Shown here piece by piece: positions 2-12,745 of a stretch of 12,745 nt of DNA. This DNA is from Pedosphaera sp. (GTDB lineage: Bacteria; Verrucomicrobiota; Verrucomicrobiia; Limisphaerales; SIBH01). Under the pieces are notes generated by a model. It worked only from the letters and a program-made list of their open reading frames with translations. It had not been told where the DNA came from and made no database searches. The translations under genes and the position numbers were made by a program. The stretch is taken from NCBI GenBank assembly GCA_031414955.1, contig JANOQV010000052.1:1-12745 (forward strand), read 5' to 3'. Position 1 is the stretch's first letter; each line of letters starts with the position of its first letter.

Positions 2-3000
2 ACGAATCAACTCATGGCCGCGATGAGCGAATACGATCCGGGCGTGCGCTGGTGGGCCGCGACCACGCTGGGCACGAACACCAACACCAGTGTGTCCGCC
101 CTGATCAACCTGGCCAGTCACACCAATTCGCGCGTGCGCGAAGCGGCATGTCAGGCCTTGGGCGTGATGAAGAACACCAACGCGCTCGCCGTGCTGGGCC
201 TGCGGTTGACCGACACGAATATCTGGGTCCGCTCCAAGGCCGCCAAAGCCCTGAAGAACATCGGCACGCCGGCGCTTCCACAACTGACCAACATGCTGAC
301 GGCGTTCATCACCAACGCCACGGATCCGCAGGTGATCGTGTGGGAGGATCCGATCCAGATCGCGAACGGCTACCTGGCCGATGCGCTGTTCAACACGCTC
401 GGCTCCTCCACGATCGGCGCGAACACGAACCTGCTTTATCCGGCGGTGCGCGCCGGCTTGAGCCAGCCGGACGGCATGGCGCTGGGCTACCTTTCGAGCT
501 TCCTGCAAAACCGTCTGACCCTGACGCACGTTCAGGTGTTGGCACCGAGCATCGTCGCCGCCATCGCGGAGCGGTCGCCGGCGGATCGGATGTTCAGCGA
601 CGGCATCCGCTTCGCCGGCCTGAAGACGCTCGGGAAGTACAAGATCGAGGAGGGCATTCCGCTGGCGCTGATGGTGAAGGAGCAAACCTGGCATGGCGAC
701 GACTGGGCACCGTTCGATCAGTTGCAGAACAACTATCGCGGCGCGGCCAGGGATGCGCTGCCCACGCTCTACGCGTGGCAGGCACACATTCCACAGTTCG
801 CAGCTGATGGTTCGATTGGCGGCTGTTGTCCGGATCGGCTGATCAACATTTCGAACAAGATTGCGTCGGCCATCGCGGCGATCGTCAACGATCCGGCGCC
901 GCCCACGCTGGTTAATTTCAAGAAGCTGTCCGCCGTCAACACCAGCCCGTCCGTGGTTGCTTTGCCGGCGACCAGCACTCTGCTCAGCACGACGGCGTCC
1001 GATCTGGACGGCGGCGTGTTGAACTATTCCTGGAGCAAGCTGAGCGGCGCGGGGAACGTGGTGTTCACTCCGAACGGCACCGCCAACTCCAACGTTGTGG
1101 CCTCGTTCGACACTCCCGGCTCCTATGTATTGCGACTGGCGGCTGTCGATGGCTCGATCCTGAACAGCAACATCTGGATCACCTACAACCTCGGCTATTT
1201 CGATTTTCAGACCTACACCAACGTGATCGGCGCGGTTTACACCAACGTGACCGTCACCGTCAGCGCGCCGACCAATCGCGCCCCGGTCCCTCAGAACCAG
1301 AGCCTCACGACTACGCTCAACACCGCCGTGCCCATCACGCTCGCCGCCACCGATCCCAATGGCGATGCGGTGACATTCATCGTTGGGACGACGCCGGCGA
1401 ACGGCACGCTCTCCGGCGCAGCGCCAAACCTGGTTTACGCGCCGGCTCCCGGTTACACGGGCCTCGACAGCTTCACCTTCACGGCCAATGACGGGCAGGC
1501 GGAATCCAGCGGCGCCACGGTGACCATCGATGTCGGAGCAGCCGGCAACCGCAGGCCCGTGGCGGCGAATCAGTCCGTGACGACTGCCGAAGACACCGCC
1601 AGGGCGATCACACTGAGCGGAACAGATGCCGACGGAACTCCGCTCACATTCACTATCGTGAGTCCACCCATCAACGGCACGCTCTTGGGCGCGCCGCCGA
1701 ACGTGACCTATTTGCCGGCCACGAATTTTCCGTCCGGGAATTTCCCTGGCTCGGACAGCTTCACCTTCGTCGTGAGTGACGCCTCGCTGACCAGCGCGGT
1801 CGCGACGGTGAGCATCACGGTGACGCCGGCGAATGATCCCCCGGTGGCCATCCCGCAGAGCGTGAACCTCGCTGCGAACACAGCACAATCCATCACGCTG
1901 GCTGGATTCGATGCCGAGGGTTACTCGCTTCTCTACACCAACGCGAGCAACCCCGCGCACGGCACGTTGTCCGGCACCGCGCCCAACTTGATTTACCGGT
2001 TGGCGACAAACTTCCACGGCGCGGACAGCTTCACGTTCCGGGTCACGGACAGCGAAGGGGCGGTGTCGTCGGTCGCGACCGTCAGCATCACGGTGAGCAA
2101 CGATCCGCCGGTGGCCCATGCGCTCTTCCTCGAAGTGCCGCCGAATAGCACCAACGCCATCACGTTGACCGGTCGCGACAACACCGGCGATGCGCTGACG
2201 TTCACCGTGCTCTCCCAGCCAGCCAGCGGACTTCTGTCGGGCACGGCGCCGAATCTGACTTACCGGCCGACGACGGATTTCACCGGCGCGGACAGCTTCA
2301 CTTTCAAAGTGAGTGACGGCGTGTGGGACGCCACCAACAACGTCACCATCACCGTGGTGCAGTGGCAAAGCCGGACCAACATCGCGGCCGGTTTCTGGGG
2401 GGTCTCGGCGAGTTGGGCGGGTGGAACGCATCCCGCGTTCGGAGGTGGAGCCGACTACCTGATCGTGTTCAGCACGAACGTCTATTCCGGCAGCAGCACG
2501 AACGATATCGCCGGGCCGTTCCAATTGAACCGGCTGATCTTCGGCAGCAACCTTCCCGCAATGAACATTTTCAGCAACGCGTTCGCGTTCACCAATCACG
2601 AGGTCACGCAGCCGCTGGTGATCCAAGGCGGCCCCAATGCGCACGCTTTCAGCAATGCGGTGACGCTCGCCGCCAGCACGACGTTCGGCGGCAAAGGCGC
2701 GGGCAAGATCACGCTGGGCGGCGTGGTCAGTGGCACGGGTGCCTTGATCAAGACGAACTCCGGCACGCTGACGCTCTCGGCGGTGAACATTTACTCCGGC
2801 GGCACCATCGTCAGCGCCGGCACGCTCAATCCGCACGGCAATGGTTCCGGGGCGTCTCGGACTGTTTTCGGCACTGGTGTGGTCTCGATGGCGAACGGCA
2901 CGATTCTCAAGGCGACGGACGTTTCGGGTCAGCCGGTGAGAATCCCCAACGCCTTCAACCTGAGCGGCGGCACCGTCAGCGTGCCCATCCCGTTCGGCGG

Positions 3001-4216
3001 CGGCACGGACCTGCGGCTCGACGGACCGATCGCGGGGCCTGGCGGCTTCACCGTCAGCGGCGGCACGCGCGGGCTTTCTCTCTACGGGACGAACACGTTC
3101 AGCGGCGGTGTGACGATCAGCGACGGCAATCGGGTGGTGATTAATAACGTCAATGCGCTGGGTCTCGGGCCGCTGAAATTGGGCAACGCCTCGGGCGGTT
3201 CCTTGCACACCGGCGCGAATCTGTCTGGGGGTCAGTTGAGCAACGCGATCAATCTCGCCGTCGGCGCGGTGCTGACCGTGGACACCGGCTCCGGCAGTTT
3301 GAACCTCGCGGGCAACATCACGAACACCGGCGGGTTGACCAAGAACGGCAACAATACCCTCACGCTCTCCGGCACGAACAGCTACACCGGCGCCACCGCC
3401 GTCCGGGTCGGGGTGCTGGCTTGCGCGCGAGCGGATGCCTTGGGCGTCGGCGCGCTGAGCATCAGCAATGGCGCGACCCTCAACTTGAATTTCACCGGCA
3501 CGCGGCGGGTGGCTTCGCTGAACCTCGGCGGCACGAACATGCCCAACGGCTCCTACGGCTCTGCGAGTTCCCCGGCGAACACGAAGGACAATCATTTCAC
3601 CGGCACCGGCACGGTCACGGTGGGCCCGCCTCCGGGTCTCATCAACTCAGCCGCCACCAGCATCGCCAGCACTTCGGCGGCGCTCCACGCCACGCTGGAA
3701 GGCAACGGCGCCATCTTCCACGTCCATGCCTATTGGAACACGATGAACGCCGGAACCAACGCCGCGCTCTGGACCAACTCGGCTTACCTCGGCGCGTGGA
3801 CCAACGTCGCCGCGACGAATCTCAGTTTCACCGCGACAGGTTTAACTCCAGGCAAGACCTACTACTTCACCTTCCGCGCCACCAACGCGACGAGCAGCCT
3901 GTGGGCGGACAACGTGGAGAGTTTCACGACGCTGGCGCCGCCCGTGCCGCCCACGCCGGTGCTGCCAGGCAGCGCGATAACTTTCTCCAGCGGCATCCCT
4001 GGCTTCAACTTCACGACGGTGGCGGGCTTCAAGTTTCGCGTCGTCTTCAAGACCACGCTGTCGGATGCTTCGTGGCTGCCCGTCATCGCGCCGCCGAATT
4101 TCCAGGCGCCCGATGGATGGAGTGCGACCTCGACCGGAGCGCCCCTGTCCTTCAGCGATGCTGGCGCAGCCGGCCAACCCCAGCGCTTCTACCGCATCGA
4201 AGCGGCGAATCCGTAG
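2..4216 (+). CDS. Large secreted/surface multidomain protein, 5'-partial: HEAT repeats, PKD/Ig-like domain, 4 cadherin/Big_9-like repeats, autotransporter-associated beta-strand (PATR) region, FN3-like domain, verrucomicrobial-type C-terminal RFYR tail
   Basis: The frame is open from base 2 (T-N-Q-L before the ATG at 14), so the true start is probably upstream. Motifs seen: HEAT-like VREAACQALG and VRSKAAKAL; PKD-like YSWSKLSG...FDTPGSYVLRL; four NxxPVA...G(L/A/S)DSFTF repeats; GALIKTNSGTLTL and GGLTKNGNNTLTLSGTNSYTG; FN3-like GLTPGKTYYFTFRATN; ends QRFYRIEAANP-TAG. From memory, the HEAT region resembles that of DUF6288-family proteins (unverified). Confidence 0.9.
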   Translation, partial: TNQLMAAMSEYDPGVRWWAATTLGTNTNTSVSALINLASHTNSRVREAACQALGVMKNTNALAVLGLRLTDTNIWVRSKAAKALKNIGTPALPQLTNMLTAFITNATDPQVIVWEDPIQIANGYLADALFNTLGSSTIGANTNLLYPAVRAGLSQPDGMALGYLSSFLQNRLTLTHVQVLAPSIVAAIAERSPADRMFSDGIRFAGLKTLGKYKIEEGIPLALMVKEQTWHGDDWAPFDQLQNNYRGAARDALPTLYAWQAHIPQFAADGSIGGCCPDRLINISNKIASAIAAIVNDPAPPTLVNFKKLSAVNTSPSVVALPATSTLLSTTASDLDGGVLNYSWSKLSGAGNVVFTPNGTANSNVVASFDTPGSYVLRLAAVDGSILNSNIWITYNLGYFDFQTYTNVIGAVYTNVTVTVSAPTNRAPVPQNQSLTTTLNTAVPITLAATDPNGDAVTFIVGTTPANGTLSGAAPNLVYAPAPGYTGLDSFTFTANDGQAESSGATVTIDVGAAGNRRPVAANQSVTTAEDTARAITLSGTDADGTPLTFTIVSPPINGTLLGAPPNVTYLPATNFPSGNFPGSDSFTFVVSDASLTSAVATVSITVTPANDPPVAIPQSVNLAANTAQSITLAGFDAEGYSLLYTNASNPAHGTLSGTAPNLIYRLATNFHGADSFTFRVTDSEGAVSSVATVSITVSNDPPVAHALFLEVPPNSTNAITLTGRDNTGDALTFTVLSQPASGLLSGTAPNLTYRPTTDFTGADSFTFKVSDGVWDATNNVTITVVQWQSRTNIAAGFWGVSASWAGGTHPAFGGGADYLIVFSTNVYSGSSTNDIAGPFQLNRLIFGSNLPAMNIFSNAFAFTNHEVTQPLVIQGGPNAHAFSNAVTLAASTTFGGKGAGKITLGGVVSGTGALIKTNSGTLTLSAVNIYSGGTIVSAGTLNPHGNGSGASRTVFGTGVVSMANGTILKATDVSGQPVRIPNAFNLSGGTVSVPIPFGGGTDLRLDGPIAGPGGFTVSGGTRGLSLYGTNTFSGGVTISDGNRVVINNVNALGLGPLKLGNASGGSLHTGANLSGGQLSNAINLAVGAVLTVDTGSGSLNLAGNITNTGGLTKNGNNTLTLSGTNSYTGATAVRVGVLACARADALGVGALSISNGATLNLNFTGTRRVASLNLGGTNMPNGSYGSASSPANTKDNHFTGTGTVTVGPPPGLINSAATSIASTSAALHATLEGNGAIFHVHAYWNTMNAGTNAALWTNSAYLGAWTNVAATNLSFTATGLTPGKTYYFTFRATNATSSLWADNVESFTTLAPPVPPTPVLPGSAITFSSGIPGFNFTTVAGFKFRVVFKTTLSDASWLPVIAPPNFQAPDGWSATSTGAPLSFSDAGAAGQPQRFYRIEAANP
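1274..2360 (+). repeat. Four tandem ~90-aa cadherin-like/Big_9 (tandem-95) Ig repeats within the CDS
   Basis: Units start at 1274 (NRAPV), 1547 (NRRPV), 1832 (NDPPV) and 2099 (NDPPV). Each has a G(T/L)LxGxxPN motif and a DSFTF motif. Confidence 0.85.
2738..3380 (+). repeat. Paralogous PATR module, copy 1 (copy 2 at ~10292-10934)
   Basis: GTLNPHGNGSGAS...SGQPVRI...PFGGGTDL.LDG..AGPGGF..SGGTR...NTFSGGVTI.DGN...NLAG.ITNTG.LTKNG.NTLTLSG occurs in both large genes. The offset is 7554 bp at both anchors checked (2828/10382 and 3338/10892). Confidence 0.9.
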
Positions 4217-4219
4217 CCA

Positions 4220-4324
4220 ATGAAATCATCGGACTCCTTCACTCCCCTGCGCTGGCTTTTACTCCTCGTGAAGCTGCCCGTGGCGACAAATGGTGCGCGG
4301 CTTTACCGGCGGCAAGCGTCCTGA
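4220..4324 (+). pseudogene. 34-aa remnant ORF: signal-peptide start joined to a C-terminal sorting-type tail (collapsed secreted-protein gene)
   Basis: ATG lies 3 nt after the upstream TAG. Translation is MKSSDSFTPLRWLLLLV|KLPVATNGARLYRRQAS*. The first half looks like the n/h-region of a Sec signal. The second half resembles the TN..RFYR tail type that ends the upstream gene (QRFYRIEAANP). Confidence 0.5.
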
Positions 4325-4362
4325 GTTGCCAGGGCGAACGCGTCTTGGCTCCTCAATTCGTC

Positions 4363-4391
4363 TGTAACCTCACGACTCTCCCGTGGAGTAT
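4363..4391 (+). promoter_or_regulatory. Putative ECF-type (autoregulatory) promoter TGTAAC-N17-GAGTAT
   Basis: An AAC-containing -35-like hexamer lies at 4363-4368, ~40 nt upstream of the ECF sigma ATG (4403). ECF sigma genes are commonly autoregulated from such promoters. The -10 assignment is a guess. Confidence 0.35.
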
Positions 4392-4402
4392 GTGGGTGAT
4401 CC

Positions 4403-4679
4403 ATGCCGTCATCCGAACAGACAACGCCGCCGCCGGACGCGTTTATTCGCGCGTTGTCGGAATGTCAGTCTGCGCTGCGGGGGTATTGCCAGGCGTCGCT
4501 CGGGCATGGCGAGGCGGCGAAGGAGGCGTGGCAGCGGACCAATGTGGTGCTGTGGCGCAAGGCCAACGACTGGAACGTGAAAACGCCGTTCCTGCGCTGG
4601 GCGCTCGCGGTCGCGCGCTTTGAAGTGCGCGCCACCTTGCGCGACCTGGCGCGGGAGCGATTGGTCTTCGACTCGGATG
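4403..4679 (+). pseudogene. ECF sigma-70 factor, N-terminal region 2 only (Planctomycete/Verrucomicrobia type); region 4 lost
   Basis: DAFIRALSECQSALRGYCQASLG...AKEAWQRTNVVLWRKANDW...FLRWALAVARFEV....RDLARERLVFDSD is a typical ECF region 2 plus the 'R.R..F' linker. Similarity stops after DSD and no region-4 HTH follows. Confidence 0.85.
4648..4665 (+). repeat. 18-bp exact direct repeat GGCGCGGGAGCGATTGGT (second copy at 9228-9245)
   Basis: Exact match read directly from the sequence. Both copies encode ARERLV, in unrelated proteins. Confidence 0.85.
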
Positions 4680-4740
4680 GACGAACGTCGCCTTTGACCT
4701 CATCAACGAGCCGGACGCTTTCGGCATCGCTTGGCATCCG
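4678..4740 (+). pseudogene. Short clan GH-A (GH5-like) glycoside hydrolase fragment with the acid/base NEP motif
   Basis: In a different frame from the sigma, 4678-4740 reads WTNVAFDLINEPDAFGIAWHP with host-like codons. F(D/E)LxNEP is the GH5 catalytic signature. It is only ~20 codons long, so chance is possible. Confidence 0.5.
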
Positions 4741-4760
4741 CCGCGCGTTCTGTGTATTCT
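4731..4760 (+). promoter_or_regulatory. Putative sigma70 promoter for the operon: TTGGCA-N18-TATTCT
   Basis: -35 TTGGCA at 4731-4736 (5/6 match to TTGACA) and -10 TATTCT at 4755-4760 (4/6 match to TATAAT), ending 14 nt before the ATG at 4775. Confidence 0.45.
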
Positions 4761-4774
4761 GGACTCGCCGTCCA

Positions 4775-5914
4775 ATGAAACGAAACTTAACAATCACGAA
4801 GCCCATTCGGGGTCCACGAGTTCATGCCGCCCCAGCGCGTTGGAAGGAGTCCTGCGCCCACAGCGAGTGCTCTCTGCATCAGCTTTCGCCGTACATTGGC
4901 AAAATTAAGAGCAGCATTGCGGCAGAGCTGGTTGACGAGTTCTCTCGCGCCGGCGAGTTGGTCGTTGACCCTTTCGCGGGTGCGGGGACAATTCCTTTGG
5001 AAGCCGCCTTGCGCGGACGACGTTCACTCGGTGCAGATGTCAGTGCTTATGCGCGGATACTATCCCAAGCGAAGCTGTCACCGCCGGTGTCTCTCGAGAA
5101 GGCCCTAATTTCCGCGGAAAAGGCACTGGCGCAGTCACGGCAATTGCCGCAACCTGACCTTCGTAGAGTTCCAGCTTGGGTTCGGCGATTCTTCCATCCC
5201 GACACACTTCGGGAGGCGTTGCGATTTGCAGAAGTCACGCGTGGGCCCGGCAACGAGTTCCTCATGGCCTGTTTCTTGGGCATCTTGCATCATCAACGGC
5301 CGGGGTTTTTGTCCTATCCTTCCAGTCACCTTGTTCCCTACTTGCGAGACAAGAAGTATCCCCGAAGCGACTTCCCAGAAATGTACACGTACCGGGAATT
5401 GCGCTCACGGTTACTGGCCAAAGTTCGTCGGAGTTTCAAGCGAGCGGTCACGCCTCCGGTCTCTCGGGTGAAGTTCATCCAAACAGCGGTGGAAGAGTTG
5501 CGGATGCCAAAGTCCTTCGACGCCCTCATCACGAGCCCCCCGTACATGAACGCTCTGGATTACGGGAGAGACAACCGACTGCGACTCTGGTTCATTGAGC
5601 CAAGTCTTGCCACGAACTCGGACAGCGATGTCATGAAACGTCGGGCAGCGTTCGTGAGTGCCATCAACAGTCTGGCTGGAAAGGTCGAGACTGGATTGCG
5701 TTCAAAGGGCTATTGCGTATTCGTTGTTGGCGAGGAGTTCAACCGCAGCTTCAGCGCTCATCCTGCGGAAGCCGTCATCGGCATAATGGCCACCAAGGCG
5801 CCGTCGCTAAAACTCCTGAAGATTCTGGCTGACAAAATTCCAGATGTGCGCCGAACTCGTCGGGAGTGTAAGGGCGTCAAGACGGAACATGTTCTCGTGT
5901 TCCAGCGGAACTGA
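4775..5914 (+). CDS. Amino-DNA methyltransferase, alpha-class motif order, probably N4-cytosine (379 aa)
   Basis: LHQLSPYIGK (motif X-like), motif I VVDPFAGAGT at ~4967, then a long variable region, then motif IV LITSPPY at 5531 and GYCVFVVG. SPPY is typical of m4C enzymes. The start was moved from 4403 to ATG 4775 because the upstream in-frame part is sigma-factor sequence. Confidence 0.88.
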   Translation: MKRNLTITKPIRGPRVHAAPARWKESCAHSECSLHQLSPYIGKIKSSIAAELVDEFSRAGELVVDPFAGAGTIPLEAALRGRRSLGADVSAYARILSQAKLSPPVSLEKALISAEKALAQSRQLPQPDLRRVPAWVRRFFHPDTLREALRFAEVTRGPGNEFLMACFLGILHHQRPGFLSYPSSHLVPYLRDKKYPRSDFPEMYTYRELRSRLLAKVRRSFKRAVTPPVSRVKFIQTAVEELRMPKSFDALITSPPYMNALDYGRDNRLRLWFIEPSLATNSDSDVMKRRAAFVSAINSLAGKVETGLRSKGYCVFVVGEEFNRSFSAHPAEAVIGIMATKAPSLKLLKILADKIPDVRRTRRECKGVKTEHVLVFQRN

Positions 5915-5915
5915 C

Positions 5916-8369
5916 ATGCGAGCGAATCTCCCAGACAAGAGTTTCTTTCCTGGAAAGCCAGTGCCGACGAGACCCGACGTTAAGATTGTCGCACTCGTCG
6001 ATAGTGGTTTCGACGGGCATCTCTATCGCGCGCATTCGGCGCAACTAGGACGCGACCTTGCCTGCAAGGTGATTCCGAGCGCCAATTTGCACGTTGGATC
6101 TGGCGGCGAAGAGACATGGAAAGCGGAGGTATTGAAAGCGGACCTGCTCCGCAATCCAGCGGTGGTGAAGTTCGAGGACATCAGAGCGTGGAAAGATGAC
6201 GCGGCTGGAATCGACTGTGTAGTGCTCGTTTCGGAGTTTGTCGAAGGCCCCAACTTACGCAAGTTCATCGCCGACCATCCGCAGGAACTCACCGTTCCGT
6301 TCATTGTTCAGTTCCTTGGAACGATGTTGGAGCTGTTTCACGAGATGAAACAACGCAACGTCACCCACGGCGACCTCCATTCTGGCAACATCCTCGTCGA
6401 AGACCGTTCCGCTTACGCGCTGATGTCACCGACATTTGCGTTCCGAGTGACAGACTTTGGTGTAGCCGAGGCGACAAGTGAGCCGCGATTTAAGGAGGAC
6501 TTTCTGCAACTGGCCGACATCCTCGCTCAACTGCTGCGCGGGGTGGACTATCAGGCGTGGGGGCCGAAGGAGAAATTTGTCTTCAACGTGCTCAGGAACG
6601 ATTTCCTTGGTCGCCATCTTGTCGAGACAGACCCTACTCGCGACCCACTGGCGAAACAGCCTGAGAAGCTCTTTCGGCGGCTCCAAGAATTGGACGCTGA
6701 GTTTGAGAATGCCGCGGCTCAGGAGTCCGCTCGGCTGCTGACGCCGTTTGATTTTCTCAGTTGCGAGCAAATTGGTGACGCCCCGTCACTGTTGAAAGCG
6801 CTCTACTCGGACCGGTTCCTTGGTCTTCAAGAAATCGAAAGCCGCAACAATATCGTCGTCACAGGCCCTCGCGGGTGCGGCAAGAGCACGGTGTTCAGGA
6901 GCCTGAGTTTGCGGCAGAAAATGCGAACGGGCGAGGCAACCGCAGAAAAAGTAAATTACTTGGGAGTTTACTATCGGTGCGATGACTTGTACTTCGCCTT
7001 CCCTCGATACAATCTTCCGGCCCGCCCAGAAGCGCTCGACATCCCGCTTCACTTCATCACTTCGACTTTGCTCGCTGAGCTGCTTGATTCGCTAGAGGTT
7101 TGGGCGAAGCAGCACGCCCGCGCGGACTTTGTCCGGCTCGAATCCAGGGCTGCGCAGGCTGTGTGGGATGTGCTCGGCCTCCCGCCGCCACATGAACCCG
7201 GAGCAGATACTCTCAAATCCATTGCGGCAGAGCTCCAAAATCAGCGACGCAAGGCCGTCGATCGGCAAAGATTTGCTAGTGACTTGAAGCGAGCGGTTGG
7301 AAGGTGCTTCGGGGCAGAGGTGCTTCAGCGCGTATGTGAAGCGTTGGTCGGGACTTTCTCGTTTCTCCGCGACCGGCCGTTCTACTTCTTCATCGACGAC
7401 TACTCGGCGCCCAAGGTCACGAAAGAACTTCAATCCAACCTCAACCGGCTGTTCATGCAGCGGACATCGGTTTGCTTCTTCAAGCTCTCGACCGAGAGTC
7501 CGGTTTCCTTTGTCAAAAGTGACGTTGACCAAAAAATCTACGTCGAGAATAGGGAATACATCCTCCAAAATCTCGGCCTGATTTACCTGCATGCGGAACC
7601 AGAACCCAAACTTGCATTCGTCCAAGATATATTCCGGCGTCGCCTTTCAGAAACGTCAGGTGGGTACCCGGTAAAAGAGTTGGACGAGCTCATCGGGAGC
7701 AATCCCAGCCAGAACAATAATCAGGAAGCCCGTCAGATTCGTGCGGGCGAAAAACCTTCACTGTGGGGTAAGGAAACTCTGTGCAAGCTGTGCAGCGGCG
7801 ATATTCACTACCTCATCAGTCTGGTCGGGGACATGGTGAAATTGGCCGGTGGCCCGACGGAGCTTGCCAAATCGGAAGCGGTGCCGCGCGTATCTCAACG
7901 CCTACAAACACAGGCGATGCGCGAAGCCGCCGGAAAATTCCTCAAAAACCTACGAGGCGTACCAAAGTGCGGCGATAAGCTGGTAGCAATTGTTGAGGCG
8001 TTCGGCAATGTAGCCCACTCACACCTGAAACACGCTGATTCCCAGAACGAGAATGGCACTCCCCCGAAGCAAGCCACGCGCATTGAGCCTTACGAGCCCC
8101 TTTCGCTGTCTGACGAAGCGCAAAGCCTCTATGACGAATTGCTGCGCTACTCAGTTTTCATCGAGGATTTCCGAGGCAAAAGCCGGCGTGGAAAAGTTGT
8201 ACCCCGGCTCTTCATGCGACGATTCCTGATTCCACATTTCAACCTTACGTTTAGCACCCGTGACTCCATCGAACTCGAACCGCGTGACTTCGAGCAGTTT
8301 TTGACCGAGCCAACTCGGTTCGAGGAGAGATTCCGTCTGAAGACGCACCAACAAAAATTTGAATTGTAA
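5916..8369 (+). CDS. Protein-kinase-like domain fused to a P-loop ATPase (ORC/Cdc6- or STAND-like) with a probable C-terminal winged helix (817 aa)
   Basis: Kinase motifs: DSGFDGHLY Gly-loop, LACKVIP, WKAEV, LVSEFVEG, HGDLHSGNILV (6366) and TDFG (6453). ATPase motifs: Walker A VVTGPRGCGKST (6864), Walker B FYFFIDDY (~7380) and SGDIHYLISL. The ATG follows the methyltransferase stop as TGA-C-ATG. Confidence 0.88.
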   Translation: MRANLPDKSFFPGKPVPTRPDVKIVALVDSGFDGHLYRAHSAQLGRDLACKVIPSANLHVGSGGEETWKAEVLKADLLRNPAVVKFEDIRAWKDDAAGIDCVVLVSEFVEGPNLRKFIADHPQELTVPFIVQFLGTMLELFHEMKQRNVTHGDLHSGNILVEDRSAYALMSPTFAFRVTDFGVAEATSEPRFKEDFLQLADILAQLLRGVDYQAWGPKEKFVFNVLRNDFLGRHLVETDPTRDPLAKQPEKLFRRLQELDAEFENAAAQESARLLTPFDFLSCEQIGDAPSLLKALYSDRFLGLQEIESRNNIVVTGPRGCGKSTVFRSLSLRQKMRTGEATAEKVNYLGVYYRCDDLYFAFPRYNLPARPEALDIPLHFITSTLLAELLDSLEVWAKQHARADFVRLESRAAQAVWDVLGLPPPHEPGADTLKSIAAELQNQRRKAVDRQRFASDLKRAVGRCFGAEVLQRVCEALVGTFSFLRDRPFYFFIDDYSAPKVTKELQSNLNRLFMQRTSVCFFKLSTESPVSFVKSDVDQKIYVENREYILQNLGLIYLHAEPEPKLAFVQDIFRRRLSETSGGYPVKELDELIGSNPSQNNNQEARQIRAGEKPSLWGKETLCKLCSGDIHYLISLVGDMVKLAGGPTELAKSEAVPRVSQRLQTQAMREAAGKFLKNLRGVPKCGDKLVAIVEAFGNVAHSHLKHADSQNENGTPPKQATRIEPYEPLSLSDEAQSLYDELLRYSVFIEDFRGKSRRGKVVPRLFMRRFLIPHFNLTFSTRDSIELEPRDFEQFLTEPTRFEERFRLKTHQQKFEL

Positions 8370-8379
8370 AACTCACCCG

Positions 8380-9426
8380 ATGTCGCGCGTCGAAACTCCA
8401 GATGAAAAGTTGGCGAAGCTGGTCAAGCCCAGCTTGCAAACCGTACCGTCACTAGAATTGGAGTCAGAAGACTGCATTGTCATCTGCGCCGGATTCGAGG
8501 ACAGAGCGATGGCAATGCTCCAGTCGATGGTCGCGGTGAGGAGCCGAGGGCGAGTGCTACTCGTGGACTACCGGCCATATGTTGGCGAAAACAGAGTTGA
8601 GGAGTTTCGTTCACTTTGCCGCCAAGGCGGTTTGGCGCTGACAGAACTGGCGTACGACCGGCAGAGGCCAGCGGGATTTGGGATGGAACTGCTTCAAAGC
8701 ATCGCTGGAGTGCATGGGCGTGTTTTCGTTGATGTCTCCGCGATGTCCCGCCTGCTAATCGTACAAGCCCTTGTTGCCATTGGCAGCCGGCCTGATGGAT
8801 TTTCGAACTGCTGCATCGCCTATGCCGAAGCCACTGACTACCCTCCAAGCCGAGCTGAAGCCGAAGCTGTATTGGCAAGATCGGACGGAGACCCGACCTT
8901 TTCGGTACACTTCCTTTCCTCCGGGATATTCGACGTGACCGTGGTCCCGGAATTGTCATCGACTGCAATGACAGCAGGTCAGATGCGTCTTGTTGTGTTC
9001 CCTTCGCTCGATGCCGACCAACTGACCTCGCTACGTGCAGAACTCCAGCCTTCACGCTACACGTTTGTCGAAGGAATCCCGCCAAGTCCGCAGAACCGGT
9101 GGCGACCCGGCCTCATCTCCAAATTGAATCATCTGTCCGAAATGCAGGAAGCCGAGCGGTTCACAACGAGCACCCTCGACTATGCCGAGACTTTGGATTG
9201 CTTGGTCAGCCTTTACTCGAAACATGCGGCGCGGGAGCGATTGGTGATTTCGCCGACCGGGAGCAAAATGCAGACAGTAGCGGTCGGATTGTTTCGGGCT
9301 TTCGTTCGCGATGTTCAGTTAGTCTATCCAACACCAAGAGACTTCCATTCACCAGCACACTACACCCACGGGATTGGGCCGTTGCATGTGCTCCCGCTGG
9401 ATGCGTTGCATCCCTCCATCGAGTAG
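8380..9426 (+). CDS. Uncharacterised 348-aa protein, predicted tandem Rossmann-like (CARF-like) domains; third gene of the operon
   Basis: ATG lies 10 nt after the kinase-ATPase stop and codon style matches the two upstream genes. The halves have parallel layouts: IVICAGFEDRA...VFVDVSAMSR...IAYAEATDY and LVVFPSLDADQ...LVISPTGSKMQ...LVYPTPRDF. These echo the CARF strand-(D/N)x(T/S)GGxK-helix-strand-Y pattern. The CDS call is strong; the fold is inference. Confidence 0.75.
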   Translation: MSRVETPDEKLAKLVKPSLQTVPSLELESEDCIVICAGFEDRAMAMLQSMVAVRSRGRVLLVDYRPYVGENRVEEFRSLCRQGGLALTELAYDRQRPAGFGMELLQSIAGVHGRVFVDVSAMSRLLIVQALVAIGSRPDGFSNCCIAYAEATDYPPSRAEAEAVLARSDGDPTFSVHFLSSGIFDVTVVPELSSTAMTAGQMRLVVFPSLDADQLTSLRAELQPSRYTFVEGIPPSPQNRWRPGLISKLNHLSEMQEAERFTTSTLDYAETLDCLVSLYSKHAARERLVISPTGSKMQTVAVGLFRAFVRDVQLVYPTPRDFHSPAHYTHGIGPLHVLPLDALHPSIE

Positions 9427-9740
9427 CTGGCGACCGTCTGGCGCAACCCGACCAACCTCGGCGCGGCGGAACCGCCCGACGGCATCGCTCTCTCCGGCTT
9501 CGACTTCACCTTTGATCGCTTGAGCGTGGCGCACTGGGTCAGCGCGTTCGGCTCGCCGGGATTGAACTTCGACGAATTCCGCCTCGGCACGAACTGGGCG
9601 AGTGTGACGCCGCCCGGCGGCGACGGCGACACGCGGATGGTGTTCGACTTCGACGACGGCACCTACCAGGGCTGGACGCAGGTGATGACCAATGCCGACT
9701 ACTCGCCGCAGGCCTTCGTGGTCGCGGCCGGCGCGGATGC
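9427..9740 (+). pseudogene. Internal fragment of a host-type secreted protein, lacking its start and natural end
   Basis: Reads LATVWRNPTNLGAAEPPDGIALSGFDFTFDRLSV...NFDEFRLGTNWASVTPPGG..MVFDFDDGTYQGWTQV.. with high GC3. The 'W.NP...FDE.R.GT.W..V' pattern is typical of verrucomicrobial extracellular beta-sandwich domains. Coding style degrades after ~9740 and the frame closes at 9849. Confidence 0.7.
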
Positions 9741-9806
9741 AGCCTGCAAGCGCCAAGAGCATGTTTGCTCTGTGCGAAATGGCTGCGTTGCGGCTGACGT
9801 TCAAAG

Positions 9807-9858
9807 TCGACTTGGGTGGTCTTCTATGACAGAATTCACGTTTCTGTAATCAGAAACG
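9807..9858 (+). promoter_or_regulatory. Putative promoter (TCGACT-N17-CAGAAT with extended TG) plus overlapping inverted-repeat operator
   Basis: -35 at 9807-9812, TG at 9827-9828 and -10 at 9830-9835. A perfect inverted repeat CGTTTCTG-TAAT-CAGAAACG spans 9839-9858, ending 10 nt before ATG 9869. Confidence 0.5.
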
Positions 9859-9868
9859 AAAACCGTCA

Positions 9869-12745
9869 ATGAACTCGCCATACTCCACTACTCACATACT
9901 TCGGCTGCTGCTCGTCGCCGCGCTCGCGCTGAATGCTTCGGCGCAGTCCACCTGGACAAACTCCGCGGGCGGCAACTGGTCGGTGGCGGCTAATTGGACG
10001 GGTGGCGTTCCCGTGTCGGGCGGCGCAACGATTCTGAATTTCACGGCGGCAGGCGCCTACAGCGTCACCAACGACCTGCCGGGCGTCTTCCAGCTCAATC
10101 AGATTAATTTCGCCGGACCCACGCTGAGTCTTCGCGGGAACAATCTTCAACTGACCGGCAGCAATTCGCAGATGAATCAGAACGGCGCGGGTCCGGTGAC
10201 GAATTACCTCAGCATCGAGCTGGCCACGAACGTCACGCTTGGCGGAGCGGGTGGCGGCACGATGACGTTCGCGGGCGTGCTCACCGGGTCGGGCAACCTG
10301 ACCAAGACCAACGGCGGGACGCTGACGATTCCGGTCGCGCACAGCCACAGCGGCGGGACGATTATCCTCAACGGCACACTGAATCCGCATGGCAACGGCT
10401 CCGGCGCTTCGCTGAATTTTTTCGGCACGGGCACGCTGACGATGACCAACGGCGTCACGCTCCGCCCGACGGATGCCTCGGGTCAGCCGGTGAGAATTTC
10501 CACGGCCATTGCGTTGAGCGGCGGCACGGTGAACGTGCCCGTTCCGTTCGGTGGCGGCACGGACCTCTGGCTCGACGGCGTGGTGGCGGGGCCGGGCGGA
10601 TTCTCCATCAGCGGCGGCACGCGCTGGCTGGCGCTTTTCGGCAACAACACCTTCAGCGGCGGCGTGACGATCAACGATGGCAACCAGGTCCGGATTAACA
10701 CGGTGAACGGTTTGGGCGCCGGGCCACTGCGATTGGGCAACTCCTCCGGCGGCTCGTTGAATCCTCTCGCCAATCTCTCCGCCGGTCTCGTGACCAACGT
10801 CATCAATCTGGCTGCGGGCGGAACGCTGTTCGTGGACACGGGCGGCGGCAGCGTGAACCTCGCCGGCAGCATCACGAACACTGGCGCGCTGACCAAGAAC
10901 GGCGGCAACACGCTGACTCTCTCCGGCGTGAACACGCACAGCAGCAACACCACGGTCAACGCCGGCTCGCTCACGTTGAGCAACCGCCTGGCGTTGCAGA
11001 ACAGCACGCTCGTTTTCGGCGGAGGCTCCATCGCCTTCGGCGGAACGCTGACGCCGTTCACCTTCGGCGGACTTTCCGGCAGCACGGCGTTGCCGCTGGT
11101 CAACGCGGTCGGAGCGCCGGTCGTGCTGACCGTCGGCAACAACAGCAGCACTTACAGCGGCGAGTTCAGCGGCGCAGGCGGGTTTACCAAGAGCGGCGCA
11201 GGCACGCTGACGCTCTCGGTCGCGAGCACCTTCAGCGGCGTCACCACGGTCGCGGGCGGCATCTTGCGACTGACCACCGCCGCGGCGCTCGGCACGAACA
11301 CGGACGTGGTGCTGAACAGCGGCAGCGGGACGCTCGACCTCGCGTTCACCGGCACCAATCTGGTCAATGCGCTCTTCATCAACGGGACGCGGCAGCCGGT
11401 CGGCGACTACGGCGCGAACGGTTCCACGCTCACCGGCGGCGGCTATCTGCGCGTGGCGACGGCGACGCCGAGTTCGCGGAAGGACATTCTCACCTTCACC
11501 TTTCCGACGTTCGGCGCGGCGACGCTGGCCGGGACGAACATCACGCTCACCGTTCCCTACAACACTCCGGTGACGAGCCTCGCGCCGACGTTCACGCTCT
11601 CGCTGCTGGCGACGGCAAGTCCGGTTTCGGGCACCGCGCGGGATTTCACGGCGCCGCAGATTTACACCGTCACGGCTGAGGACGCCTCGACGCGGGATTT
11701 TCGCGTGACGGTCATCGTGACTCCGGCGAGCGCGGCGAAGGACATCCTCACCTTCACCTTCCCGTCGTACGGCGCGGCCACGATTGCCGGCACGAACATC
11801 ACCATGACCGTCCCCTACGGCACCGCGGTGACGAACCTCGCGCCGACTTTCACGGTCTCGCCCGCCGCGTCGGCGAGTCCGGTTTCGGGAACAACGCGGG
11901 ACTTCACCGCGCCGCAGATTTACACCGTCACGGCCGAGAATGGCTCCACCAAGGACTTCCGCGTCACGGTCAACATCACGCCCATCAGCTCGGCGAAGGA
12001 CATCCTGACGTTCGACTTCGGCGCGCTGGGACCGGCGGCGATTGCCGGGACGAACATCACCATCACGGTGGGATTGAACGTGGGGCTGACGAACCTCGCG
12101 CCGACTTTCACGGTGTCGCCGTTCGCCAGCGGCAATCCGGCGTCCGGAACCACGAACGACTTCACGACGCCGCAGATTTACACGGTCACGGCGGAGAACA
12201 GTTCGACCAGAGACTTTCGCGTCACGGTCAACATCACGCCCATCAGTTCGGCGAAGGACATCCTCACGTTCGACTTCGGCGCGCTGGGGCCGGCGACGAT
12301 TGCCGGGACAAACATCACCATCACGGTGGGATTGAACGTGGGGCTGACGAACCTCGCGCCGACTTTCACGGTGTCGCCGTTCGCCACCGGCAATCCGCCG
12401 TCGGGAGCCACGAACAACTTCACCACTCCGCGGACGTACGCAGTGACCGCGCAGGACGGCTCGACGAAGAGCTACCTCGTCACGGTGCAGACTTATCTCG
12501 CGTGGCAGTATTCCGGCTCGTTCCACATCATCACCACACCGGAAGGCGCGAACCTGACCGGCTCGGTTTCGGAAACAAATTTCCCGCTGCTCGTGCGGCT
12601 CAATGCGAGCTTCTTCAACTTCAGCCAGGCGAAGGCTGGCGGCGCGGACCTTCGTTTCACCACCAGCGCGGGCGCGACGCTTGCCTACCAGATTGAGGAA
12701 TGGGGCGCCGCGAACGGAACGGCCAGCGTCTGGGTGCGCGTGCCG
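9869..12745 (+). CDS. Large secreted protein, 3'-partial: signal peptide, PATR repeats, four DUF5018-like Ig repeats, start of a DUF2341-like domain
   Basis: Absent from the ORF track because there is no stop in the window. Starts MNSPYSTTHILRLLLVAALALNASA|QSTWTNSAGGNWS (A-x-A cleavage site). Contains GNLTKTNGGTLTI, GALTKNGGNTLTLSG, GGFTKSGAGTLTLS and 4x KDILTF...APTFT.S...F(T)..P..Y.VTA. Ends NFPLLVRLNASFFNFSQAKAGGADLRFT...LAYQIEEW...ASVWVRVP. Confidence 0.9.
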   Translation, partial: MNSPYSTTHILRLLLVAALALNASAQSTWTNSAGGNWSVAANWTGGVPVSGGATILNFTAAGAYSVTNDLPGVFQLNQINFAGPTLSLRGNNLQLTGSNSQMNQNGAGPVTNYLSIELATNVTLGGAGGGTMTFAGVLTGSGNLTKTNGGTLTIPVAHSHSGGTIILNGTLNPHGNGSGASLNFFGTGTLTMTNGVTLRPTDASGQPVRISTAIALSGGTVNVPVPFGGGTDLWLDGVVAGPGGFSISGGTRWLALFGNNTFSGGVTINDGNQVRINTVNGLGAGPLRLGNSSGGSLNPLANLSAGLVTNVINLAAGGTLFVDTGGGSVNLAGSITNTGALTKNGGNTLTLSGVNTHSSNTTVNAGSLTLSNRLALQNSTLVFGGGSIAFGGTLTPFTFGGLSGSTALPLVNAVGAPVVLTVGNNSSTYSGEFSGAGGFTKSGAGTLTLSVASTFSGVTTVAGGILRLTTAAALGTNTDVVLNSGSGTLDLAFTGTNLVNALFINGTRQPVGDYGANGSTLTGGGYLRVATATPSSRKDILTFTFPTFGAATLAGTNITLTVPYNTPVTSLAPTFTLSLLATASPVSGTARDFTAPQIYTVTAEDASTRDFRVTVIVTPASAAKDILTFTFPSYGAATIAGTNITMTVPYGTAVTNLAPTFTVSPAASASPVSGTTRDFTAPQIYTVTAENGSTKDFRVTVNITPISSAKDILTFDFGALGPAAIAGTNITITVGLNVGLTNLAPTFTVSPFASGNPASGTTNDFTTPQIYTVTAENSSTRDFRVTVNITPISSAKDILTFDFGALGPATIAGTNITITVGLNVGLTNLAPTFTVSPFATGNPPSGATNNFTTPRTYAVTAQDGSTKSYLVTVQTYLAWQYSGSFHIITTPEGANLTGSVSETNFPLLVRLNASFFNFSQAKAGGADLRFTTSAGATLAYQIEEWGAANGTASVWVRVP
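10292..10934 (+). repeat. Paralogous PATR module, copy 2 (copy 1 at ~2738-3380)
   Basis: Collinear with copy 1 at a 7554-bp offset, with many synonymous and conservative substitutions. Confidence 0.9.
11471..12490 (+). repeat. Four tandem 258-bp (86-aa) coding repeats
   Basis: The anchor AAGGACAT(T/C)CT occurs at 11480, 11738, 11996 and 12254, an exact period of 258. Units 3 and 4 are near-identical; units 1 and 2 resemble each other. Confidence 0.95.

Follow-up and report, generated by a model that had tools for sequence, protein, structure and literature searches.

What are three tightly packed genes of foreign composition doing between two giant surface-repeat protein genes of a Pedosphaera sp. 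genome? The question is raised by a 12,745-base contig (JANOQV010000052.1 of assembly GCA_031414955.1), which was analysed over its whole length and is called the window here, and which belongs to a metagenome-assembled genome of 313 contigs, 95.9% complete and 5.84% contaminated. The three open reading frames (ORFs), all on the + strand, are gene 1 (4775..5914), an amino-methyltransferase of 379 residues by its motifs I and IV and its profile matches; gene 2 (5916..8369), a kinase-ATPase of 817 residues; and gene 3 (8380..9426), a tandem CARF protein of 348 residues, predicted to be a ligand sensor and a regulatory subunit of the ATPase. A first-pass annotation of this DNA had proposed a defence or conflict operon of three co-oriented, tightly coupled genes, and they do lie as it described, with gaps of 1 nt between genes 1 and 2 and 10 nt between genes 2 and 3. 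We confirm that this cassette is real, intact, horizontally mobile and widespread, and it is probably a genuine, widely distributed defence candidate, a variant of methylation-linked immunity. On balance we lean towards reading it as a mobile and self-contained immune system, in which the methylase would mark self, an ORC-like ATPase under the control of the CARF protein would detect unmarked DNA and switch on the kinase, and phosphorylation would stop the infection; all steps beyond the fold assignments are what we infer.

That the three genes form a conserved unit is clear from a one-genome-per-species scan, which found relatives of gene 3 at 60 loci, 47 of them assessable (at least 3.6 kb of upstream sequence) and 13 too short upstream. 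The full trio of methylase, kinase-ATPase and CARF protein, in the same order and on the same strand, with genes that abut or overlap, is present at 37 of the 47 assessable loci, an arrangement far beyond chance, and the three-gene order of the window is thus kept in homologues. At three more, one member of the trio is broken or cut, by an insertion sequence (IS) of the IS4/5 family in locus L026, through a short ATPase match in L021 and by the contig end in L047. The ATPase gene of L026, which is gammaproteobacterial, is split by a DDE transposase (L026:6360-7190), and its downstream fragment still matches positions 403-571 of the 571 in the Pfam family PF24389. Three of the assessable loci are remnants (L022, L049 and L054), and L048 is also a remnant. 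The last four (L025, L058, L059 and L060) have the kinase-ATPase and the CARF protein without this methylase. Identities to the window proteins co-vary over the three genes (Spearman 0.83-0.90, n=37 related loci, a descriptive figure only). In one sub-branch (L056, L057 and L078) the methylase keeps an identity of 40-55% with gene 1, against 23-33% for the kinase, ATPase and CARF parts with theirs, a contrast suggesting that modifier and sensor-effector pair have either evolved at unequal rates or been re-assorted.

The cassette is foreign to its host in composition and was acquired horizontally. Its GC content is 0.555, against a genome mean of 0.623 (standard deviation 0.019, 2760 windows of 4.65 kb), a value equally low in 0.36% of windows; GC at third codon positions (GC3) is 0.61-0.63 in the cassette genes and 0.83-0.86 in the flanking ones, and GC is back at host level from about position 9500. 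The foreign codon usage first reported is therefore real. Cassette DNA was found in one of 11 other genomes of the genus (two of 12 with its own genome), and 19 more genomes from the order yielded none. Overall, the hosts belong to Verrucomicrobiota, Binatia, Acidobacteriota, Chloroflexota, Nitrospirota, Myxococcota, Desulfobacterota-type lineages, Gamma- and Betaproteobacteria, Spirochaetia and Oscillospiraceae, together with one contig labelled archaeon, and the cassette is rare on viral contigs (one locus in 2.9 million, itself with the full trio). So patchy a presence within the genus is hard to reconcile with a housekeeping role outside any conflict, in which replication or the cell cycle would be governed by phosphorylation, through an ORC-like ATPase with a methylase. 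The ATPase is indeed of the ORC/Cdc6-like family, and the methylase is solitary and has no recognised nuclease beside it, as such a regulator might have it; against this stand the foreign composition, transfer between phyla at 50-70% identity, neighbours that are often defence genes and the existence of decayed copies, and we find a housekeeping regulator hardly credible.

Gene 1 is predicted, from sequence comparison, to be a DNA self-marking enzyme. Motif I (D65-PFAGAGT72) comes before motif IV (S254-PPY257), and the two have the form found in N6-adenine and N4-cytosine DNA methyltransferases, that is, FxGxG for motif I and (D/N/S)PP(Y/F) for motif IV. Conservation was judged on alignments of 27 rows for gene 1 and 30 rows for gene 2. 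Both motifs are invariant or nearly so in the 27 sequences; a long insert between them, ILHHQRPGFLSYPSSHLVPYLR, is mostly invariant and strongly conserved in the remainder, and the stretch directly after SPPY, MNALDYGRDNRLRLWF, is largely invariant. Gene 1 matches the PADLOC profile MTase_II (PDLC03325) at 3.6e-23, the PHROG 'DNA methyltransferase' at 6.4e-19 and Pfam N6_N4_Mtase at 30.5 bits (cut-off 26.7), the latter over residues 49-91, in the region of motif I only. A profile of gene 1 run against the PDB finds DNA N4-cytosine (1.6e-7) and N6-adenine methylases and, more weakly, tRNA N2-methylguanosine (m2G) methylases. The methylase could then be thought to act on RNA or protein (m2G in tRNA or rRNA, or glutamine), within a stress or translation-control circuit that modifies the translation apparatus. 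Its best Pfam match is UPF0020 (RlmKL-like; 39.2 bits, cut-off 22.3), the NCBIfam families Trm14, TIGR01177 and HemK match weakly and far below their cut-offs, and the structures of Trm14 and Trm-G10 appear in the profile search. The DNA methylase matches just given are stronger, however, the longer relatives of gene 1 carry a DUF1156 fusion or Eco57I-type methylase domains, and what replaces gene 1 elsewhere is DruA/Mom-like or a standard DNA methylase, so that a target in RNA or protein seems improbable to us.

These replacements concern the four loci with the kinase-ATPase and the CARF protein only. By Pfam, DruA is encoded directly upstream and on the same strand in L058 and L060 and just downstream in L059, and a different, standard N6_N4 methylase lies next to the module in L025. 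The first gene thus appears replaceable by another presumed DNA modifier, which is the best indirect evidence pointing to a DNA-marking role for gene 1. The DruA of these three loci is that of Druantia (PF14236, 4.9e-26 to 4.1e-85), and their CARF proteins are 24-27% identical to gene 3; the window itself carries the methylase and not DruA. The sole hint that DruA could be a DNA modifier is a weak match of the L058 protein to the Mom family (1.1e-5, below cut-off). Two longer proteins deserve mention beside gene 1. P0124 (665 residues, a single sequence) has an N-terminal SIR2_2 domain (PF13289) followed by a methylase 49% identical to gene 1 with all signature motifs kept, and the methylase family may therefore pair with a SIR2-type effector too. 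In P0123 (717 residues) the stop is lost and the methylase runs straight into the kinase-ATPase; since its end departs from the family at Walker A, it probably reflects a frameshift or a misassembly and not a true fusion.

Gene 2 couples a predicted output domain to an ATPase. Residues 1-270 (5916..6725, + strand) make up a complete Hanks-type Ser/Thr protein kinase domain, with the kinase fold, the catalytic lysine (K51), the HxD...N loop (H151-G-D153, N158) and the DFG motif (D180-F-G182) all intact and mostly invariant or nearly so. Residues 300-817 (6813..8369, + strand) hold an ORC/Cdc6-like AAA+ module, a helical region and a basic C-terminal alpha/beta domain. The match to PF24389 (ORC-CDC6-like) reaches 1.1e-42 and 147 bits for a cut-off of 27, with residues 300-606 as its best stretch. 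Walker A (TGPRGCGKS, 316-324; G317-P-R-G-C-G-K323) and Walker B (D494-D495) are present, with K323 and D494-D495 invariant, as is, in all 30 sequences, an arginine inside the P-loop (R319). The claim of intact catalytic motifs consequently stands for the methylase, the kinase and the ATPase alike. The identification of the ATPase as STAND-type, as in Avs, does not: the nSTAND3 family gives 13.3 bits for a cut-off of 27.2, and neither tetratricopeptide repeats (TPR) nor any other repeat family was found. The only PADLOC match of the ATPase half that reaches beyond the P-loop is to a fused profile, 'CARF6--CARF_STK_AAA' (PDLC01925), which is matched by gene 2 at 2.2e-21, by its ATPase part alone at 1.5e-9 and by gene 3 at 1.9e-9.

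The end of gene 2 is harder to name. Residues 715-817 show a strand-helix-strand-strand order and a basic hairpin, RGKSRRGK, and the C-terminal domain (the last ~110 residues) may be a winged helix of the kind that ORC/Cdc6 proteins usually have. When the whole model of gene 2 is searched by fold, only kinases come back, and an atlas search with residues 700-817 gives low scores, at most 0.78. As previously annotated, no nuclease family is recognised in genes 1-3 by Pfam, NCBIfam or PADLOC, the last ~110 residues of gene 2 not having been searched as a separate fold. Profile searches often miss restriction enzymes, and a nuclease may be hidden in these residues.

Gene 3 belongs, by profile matches, to the CARF6 clade as named in PADLOC-DB. 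It matches 'CARF6--CARF_CARF_CARF' (PDLC01917, which has no curated PADLOC cut-off) at 4.6e-16, residues 30-343 against positions 15-305 of 308, and seven further CARF6 profiles at lower scores; no family in Pfam or NCBIfam matches it, and sequence search finds no relative among solved structures. Its AlphaFold2 model (predicted local distance difference test, pLDDT, 82; predicted template modelling score, pTM, 0.88) shows two Rossmann-like lobes on the + strand, lobe 1 at about residues 28-170 (8461-8889) and lobe 2 at about residues 201-343 (8980-9408), joined by an invariant linker (residues 171-200, 8890-8979). Foldseek ranks tandem universal-stress proteins first with a template modelling score (TM) of just 0.25, and the best TM, 0.49, is that of Can1. 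The fold is nearest to CARF domains that bind cA4, cA5 and cA6 (Can1, Card1, Csa3, Can2, Csm6 and Cam1), so that it resembles solved CARF domains as members of the superfamily do, and the tandem Rossmann pair seen in the first pass is a tandem CARF by fold. The CARF signature has been described as [DN]X[ST]XXX[RK] just after strand 4, accompanied by a polar residue that follows strand 1 (Makarova et al., 2014; PMC4012209). Lobe 1 fits it with D118-V-S120-A-M-S-R124 after the strand at 115-118, D118, S120 and R124 being invariant in 24 sequences; lobe 2 shows a partial signature only, S291-P-T293-G-S-K296, with S209 after the strand at 201-206. Structure prediction thus presents gene 3 as a Can1-like tandem CARF with one composite, putative ligand pocket. 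Relatives number 555 at E <= 0.001, and the best 119 of them, which with the window's own protein make up the 120 best rows, are 54-64% identical, come from many phyla and are annotated 'hypothetical' or unnamed. Homologues share the start methionine of gene 3. Fused long forms were not found, which is weak evidence because the search for them relies on shared words.

How would such a sensor speak to the rest of the module? When the ATPase half (gene 2, residues 290-817) was co-folded with gene 3, the interface score ipSAE was 0.71, 0.71 and 0.68, against 0.24 for the best control. Of 157 solved complexes 116 reach the pass mark, as do two of 215 mismatched pairs; these counts hold only roughly here because custom alignments were used. 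The runs have at least 93% of contacts in common, with a partner pLDDT of at least 83. On the CARF side, the predicted interface consists of the invariant inter-lobe linker (182-202), a stretch that the monomer model leaves disordered, and of residues 213-223; on the ATPase side, it comprises R319 of the P-loop, the conserved stretch 352-364 and D495 of Walker B. The prediction supports a complex in which the CARF linker lies against the side of the ATPase that binds ATP, where gene 3 would occupy the place in which a neighbouring AAA+ protomer would normally sit, and the suggestion that gene 3 could be an adaptor gains from it. Docking is in line with the fused kinase-AAA-CARF profile that matches both gene 2 and gene 3. 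A similar solved complex of an ATPase with a CARF protein did not come up in sequence searches.

The resemblance of gene 3 to cyclic-nucleotide sensors brings up the source of its ligand. Were it a classical CARF effector, the kinase-ATPase would be activated by cyclic oligoadenylate (cOA) made by a synthase encoded elsewhere, in a type III CRISPR or CBASS system, and both the fold and the D-x-S-x-x-x-R of lobe 1 would suit this. Three of five closed chromosomes that bear the cassette do hold possible sources, a SMODS gene in G033, a full Csm1 in G034 and a weak Cas10-like frame in G035, all of them megabases from the cassette, and ligand may be supplied in trans in some hosts. No SMODS, Csm1 or Cmr2 was found, on the other hand, in the window's own genome, at its 95.9% completeness, or in the other two closed chromosomes (G031 and G032); the 144 nearest flanking ORFs of 40 loci showed no cas or cyclase gene either; and the constant partner is a DNA modifier. 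We therefore hold cOA control of this classical kind to be very unlikely. In the present host, in whose genome, 95.9% complete, no Cas10 or CD-NTase was found, the cassette was rejected as a CRISPR accessory or as an ancillary effector of type III CRISPR or CBASS. Can1 (PDB 6sce) and other single-chain tandem CARF/SAVED sensors have the tandem CARF in common with gene 3, but gene 3 differs from Can1 in having no fused nuclease or effector, no CRISPR or CBASS link and no Pfam family, and in that its predicted partner is an AAA+ ATPase.

The genes around the cassette were surveyed as well. Within the two ORFs closest to it on either side (144 ORFs, 40 loci), domains of restriction-modification (RM), BREX, Druantia, AIPR, GmrSD, YhcG, toxin-antitoxin or recombinase/mobile-element type occur near 25 of the 40 loci, a raw count that becomes 21 of 40 without four loci having SNF2 or DEAD helicase matches only. 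Homologues therefore do lie near defence genes, as the first-pass annotation led one to expect, with the window's own copy as an exception. In L009 the cassette adjoins PglW-like and PglX-like genes of type 2 BREX, as a separate unit. These surroundings also bear on whether the cassette could be a selfish addiction module, in which the mark of the methylase shields the genome, and cells that have shed the cassette, and later the mark, are killed or arrested by the kinase-ATPase; it would spread like the RM 'selfish gene', without necessarily acting on phages. A compact and self-contained module with a sporadic, horizontal distribution is what this would predict, and in the window the cassette interrupts a gene and has no further defence genes around it; the decayed copies (L022, L048, L049 and L054) and the IS-split L026 agree with it as well. 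Yet the cassette is often found among bona fide defence genes, and a CARF sensor is hard to explain if loss of the mark is the only trigger. Addiction is not exclusive of defence, moreover, since RM systems do both. Taken as the explanation of the cassette, we consider addiction unlikely.

Some neighbourhoods show further particulars. At two Myxococcota loci (L028:3308-4240 and L033:826-2256) a gene for the thymidylate synthase ThyX (Pfam Thy1) stands directly 5' of the methylase on the same strand, and in L028 a DruA-domain protein precedes the ThyX gene. In L034, L051, L011, L018 and L053 the cassette is beside or between very large N6_N4 methylases, ResIII/UvrD/SNF2 helicases or a DUF1156 protein, and it looks as if it occupied a cargo slot in other restriction-like operons.

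The immune system towards which we lean would work as follows. Gene 1 would methylate host DNA at a motif of its own. Reading of DNA would fall to the AAA+ half of gene 2 (ORC/Cdc6-like, with a basic domain at its C-terminus); unmarked incoming DNA would shift its nucleotide or oligomeric state, a shift that would activate the N-terminal Hanks-type kinase. The kinase would then phosphorylate host or phage proteins, and the infection would be halted by abortive infection or by a replication block. The Can1-like tandem CARF, a fold known from prediction, would use the invariant linker between its lobes to dock on the side of the ATPase that binds ATP, as the co-fold supports; so docked, gene 3 would gate ATPase activity or assembly upon binding a nucleotide-type ligand coming from neither Cas10 nor a CD-NTase. 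A wider generalisation, which we put forward as a tentative and rather doubtful one, is that of a nuclease-free innate immunity in which the mark is set by a swappable modifier (methylase or DruA), read by an ORC-like ATPase and answered by phosphorylation, with the tandem CARF on the ATP site acting as a second checkpoint that senses a nucleotide signal independent of Cas10 and CD-NTase. The source of that signal could lie within the cassette, in the kinase-fold or the AAA+ domain, or be the phage itself.

Several points weigh against such an immune role. The window cassette is outside any defence island, its neighbours being giant surface-repeat proteins and a broken sigma locus, and the counts of defence neighbours at other loci have no background rate for comparison. 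The matches of gene 1 span mainly the S-adenosylmethionine-binding motif and include weak ones of tRNA m2G and HemK type, while the winged-helix reading of residues 715-817 of gene 2 comes from the order of secondary structure alone. The co-fold pass expresses the model's own confidence and is no measurement; the Cas10-like or SMODS genes mentioned above are carried elsewhere by three of the five closed cassette hosts; and we found no published experiment on any member of the cassette. If the cassette is defensive, it would couple self-marking by methylation to a kinase output without a nuclease, a 4.7-kb counterpart of the Pgl/BREX logic, itself still poorly understood; CARF domains would gain a function beyond the cyclic-oligoadenylate signals of CRISPR and CBASS; and, because DruA replaces the methylase in a distant branch, the cassette would hint at the job of DruA in Druantia.

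The cassette had also been described as new, and this is true only in part. Fused proteins made of a Zn ribbon, a Ser/Thr/Tyr kinase, an AAA+ domain with an Arg in the P-loop, CARF and a winged helix-turn-helix (wHTH) are catalogued in a paper whose accessible part suggests a role in kinase-mediated signalling, and nothing more, and does not mention a methylase (Makarova et al., 2014; PMC4012209). As far as that part goes, the window module shares with the fused family the kinase, the AAA+ domain with its Arg in the P-loop (GPRGCGKS) and the CARF modules. It differs in being split in two genes, in having the CARF doubled and a methylase gene attached, in the lack of a Zn ribbon in gene 2 and in that gene 3 ends at CARF lobe 2, with no wHTH; it is thus not a single ZnR-kinase-AAA+-CARF-wHTH polypeptide, although it does have the Arg in the P-loop. 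The distant relative L059 keeps an N-terminal Zn ribbon. The kinase-AAA-CARF part, then, was previously catalogued, in this paper and in the CARF6 profiles of PADLOC; for the methylase link, or for a test of any function, no paper was found. No paper naming or testing the trio of methylase, kinase-ATPase and CARF protein was found in a search that did not extend to the 2020 CARF classification, which maybe covers the clade and its neighbours. A 2025 paper on CRISPR classification has no mention of CARF6, kinase, CARF_m or ORC, and the accessible parts of a paper on BREX diversity (PMC12839542) and of the CoCoNuT paper do not describe the cassette.

In functional logic, the nearest system by analogy is type 2 BREX/Pgl. 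Its components are the PglX methylase, the PglW kinase, PglY/BrxC ATPases of the ORC/Cdc6 clade and PglZ, according to the BREX-diversity paper (PMC12839542), so that a methylase, a protein kinase and an ATPase of the ORC/Cdc6 clade without a classical restriction endonuclease gene would be common to both. The cassette differs from it in having no PglZ, no BrxC and no PglX-type methylase, and a CARF protein in the place of PglZ. At 4.7 kb it is also shorter than BREX, which is well over 10 kb. Membership in BREX/Pgl was rejected, as Pfam, NCBIfam and PADLOC give no match to PglZ, BrxC or PglX and the only matches are at the level of the kinase domain and the P-loop, BrxL for example. The statement that hallmarks of BREX, DISARM and Avs are missing holds, there being no PglZ, BrxC, Drm helicase or TPR array.

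MADS is likewise a methylation-linked defence with a protein kinase. The PADLOC profiles mad6 (3.4e-15, kinase) and mad2 (3.9e-6, methylase motif I) match the cassette over single domains only, NF047741 (MAD6) gives 22.2 bits for a cut-off of 460, and no other mad genes are in the window; membership in MADS was accordingly rejected. Profiles of PD-T4-6, a single-gene defence kinase, match the kinase domain of gene 2 at up to 6.3e-14. Stk2 is another defence kinase, and both differ from gene 2 in being stand-alone kinases without AAA+, CARF or methylase.

How the cassette came to its present site can be read in part from its borders. At the left junction lies the 5' half of a gene for an ECF sigma factor (4403..4680, + strand), of which the first ~92 residues remain; residues 13-92 match positions 2-81 of the 158 in NCBIfam TIGR02989, a Rhodopirellula/Verrucomicrobium sigma family, at 5.3e-17, Pfam Sigma70_r2 matches at 1.4e-5, and GC3 is 0.83. 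Homologues in relatives have 175-217 residues, so that about half of the sigma gene, its 3' part, is gone from the window. At the right junction, an open frame of 140 residues without a start of its own (9427..9849, + strand) appears to be the tail of a gene truncated by the insert. It matches no Pfam or NCBIfam family, and its product has weak matches (38-39% identity over 43-63 residues) inside frames of 885 and 1837 residues in one genome of the same genus. From a sigma gene cut at its 3' side upstream and a startless frame downstream, we conclude that the cassette replaced part of a sigma locus.

Both junctions are bridged by single Logan contigs from two runs, one covering 4319-10062 with 0 differences and the other 4319-9963 with 1 difference; the two runs may be the source samples, and the bridging contigs are therefore not independent support. 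A run of a second study contains cassette pieces of 151 bases with at most 1 difference. An empty insertion site was not found, the flanks having no DNA match in 30 relatives and their protein fragments being matched at the level of paralogues only, and no orthologous, uninterrupted sigma locus was recovered among relatives. Comparison with other loci revealed no conserved DNA at the cassette ends, and the window holds no tRNA, Rfam family, integrase or transposase. A promoter-like site, TTGGCA-18-TATTCT (4731..4760, + strand; nine of 12 consensus matches), ends 15 nt 5' of the start of gene 1 and is a weak lead only as the promoter of that gene: it is a consensus match alone, and the region 4200-9900 has three sites of that quality against 1.3 +/- 1.1 in shuffled sequence. 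The sequencing runs listed for the cassette include no RNA dataset.

An exact direct repeat of 18 nt, GGCGCGGGAGCGATTGGT, is present at 4648-4665 and 9228-9245, with no match in any of 200 shuffles. Its first copy is in the sigma remnant and ends no more than about 15 nt from the left junction, and the second is inside the CARF gene, 181 nt before the stop. Both are in frame and encode ARERLV with identical codons, CGA and TTG included, in a sigma gene whose GC3 is 0.83, and the sequence that flanks the repeat fits no simple model of integration or deletion.

The two flanks of the locus (14-4216 and 9869-12745) encode giant secreted or surface proteins with HEAT, Big_9, cadherin-like, PATR (autotransporter-type) and DUF5018 repeats. 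Some near-identical PATR segments are common to both, and the contigs of the sequencing runs are fragmented there, with many variants.

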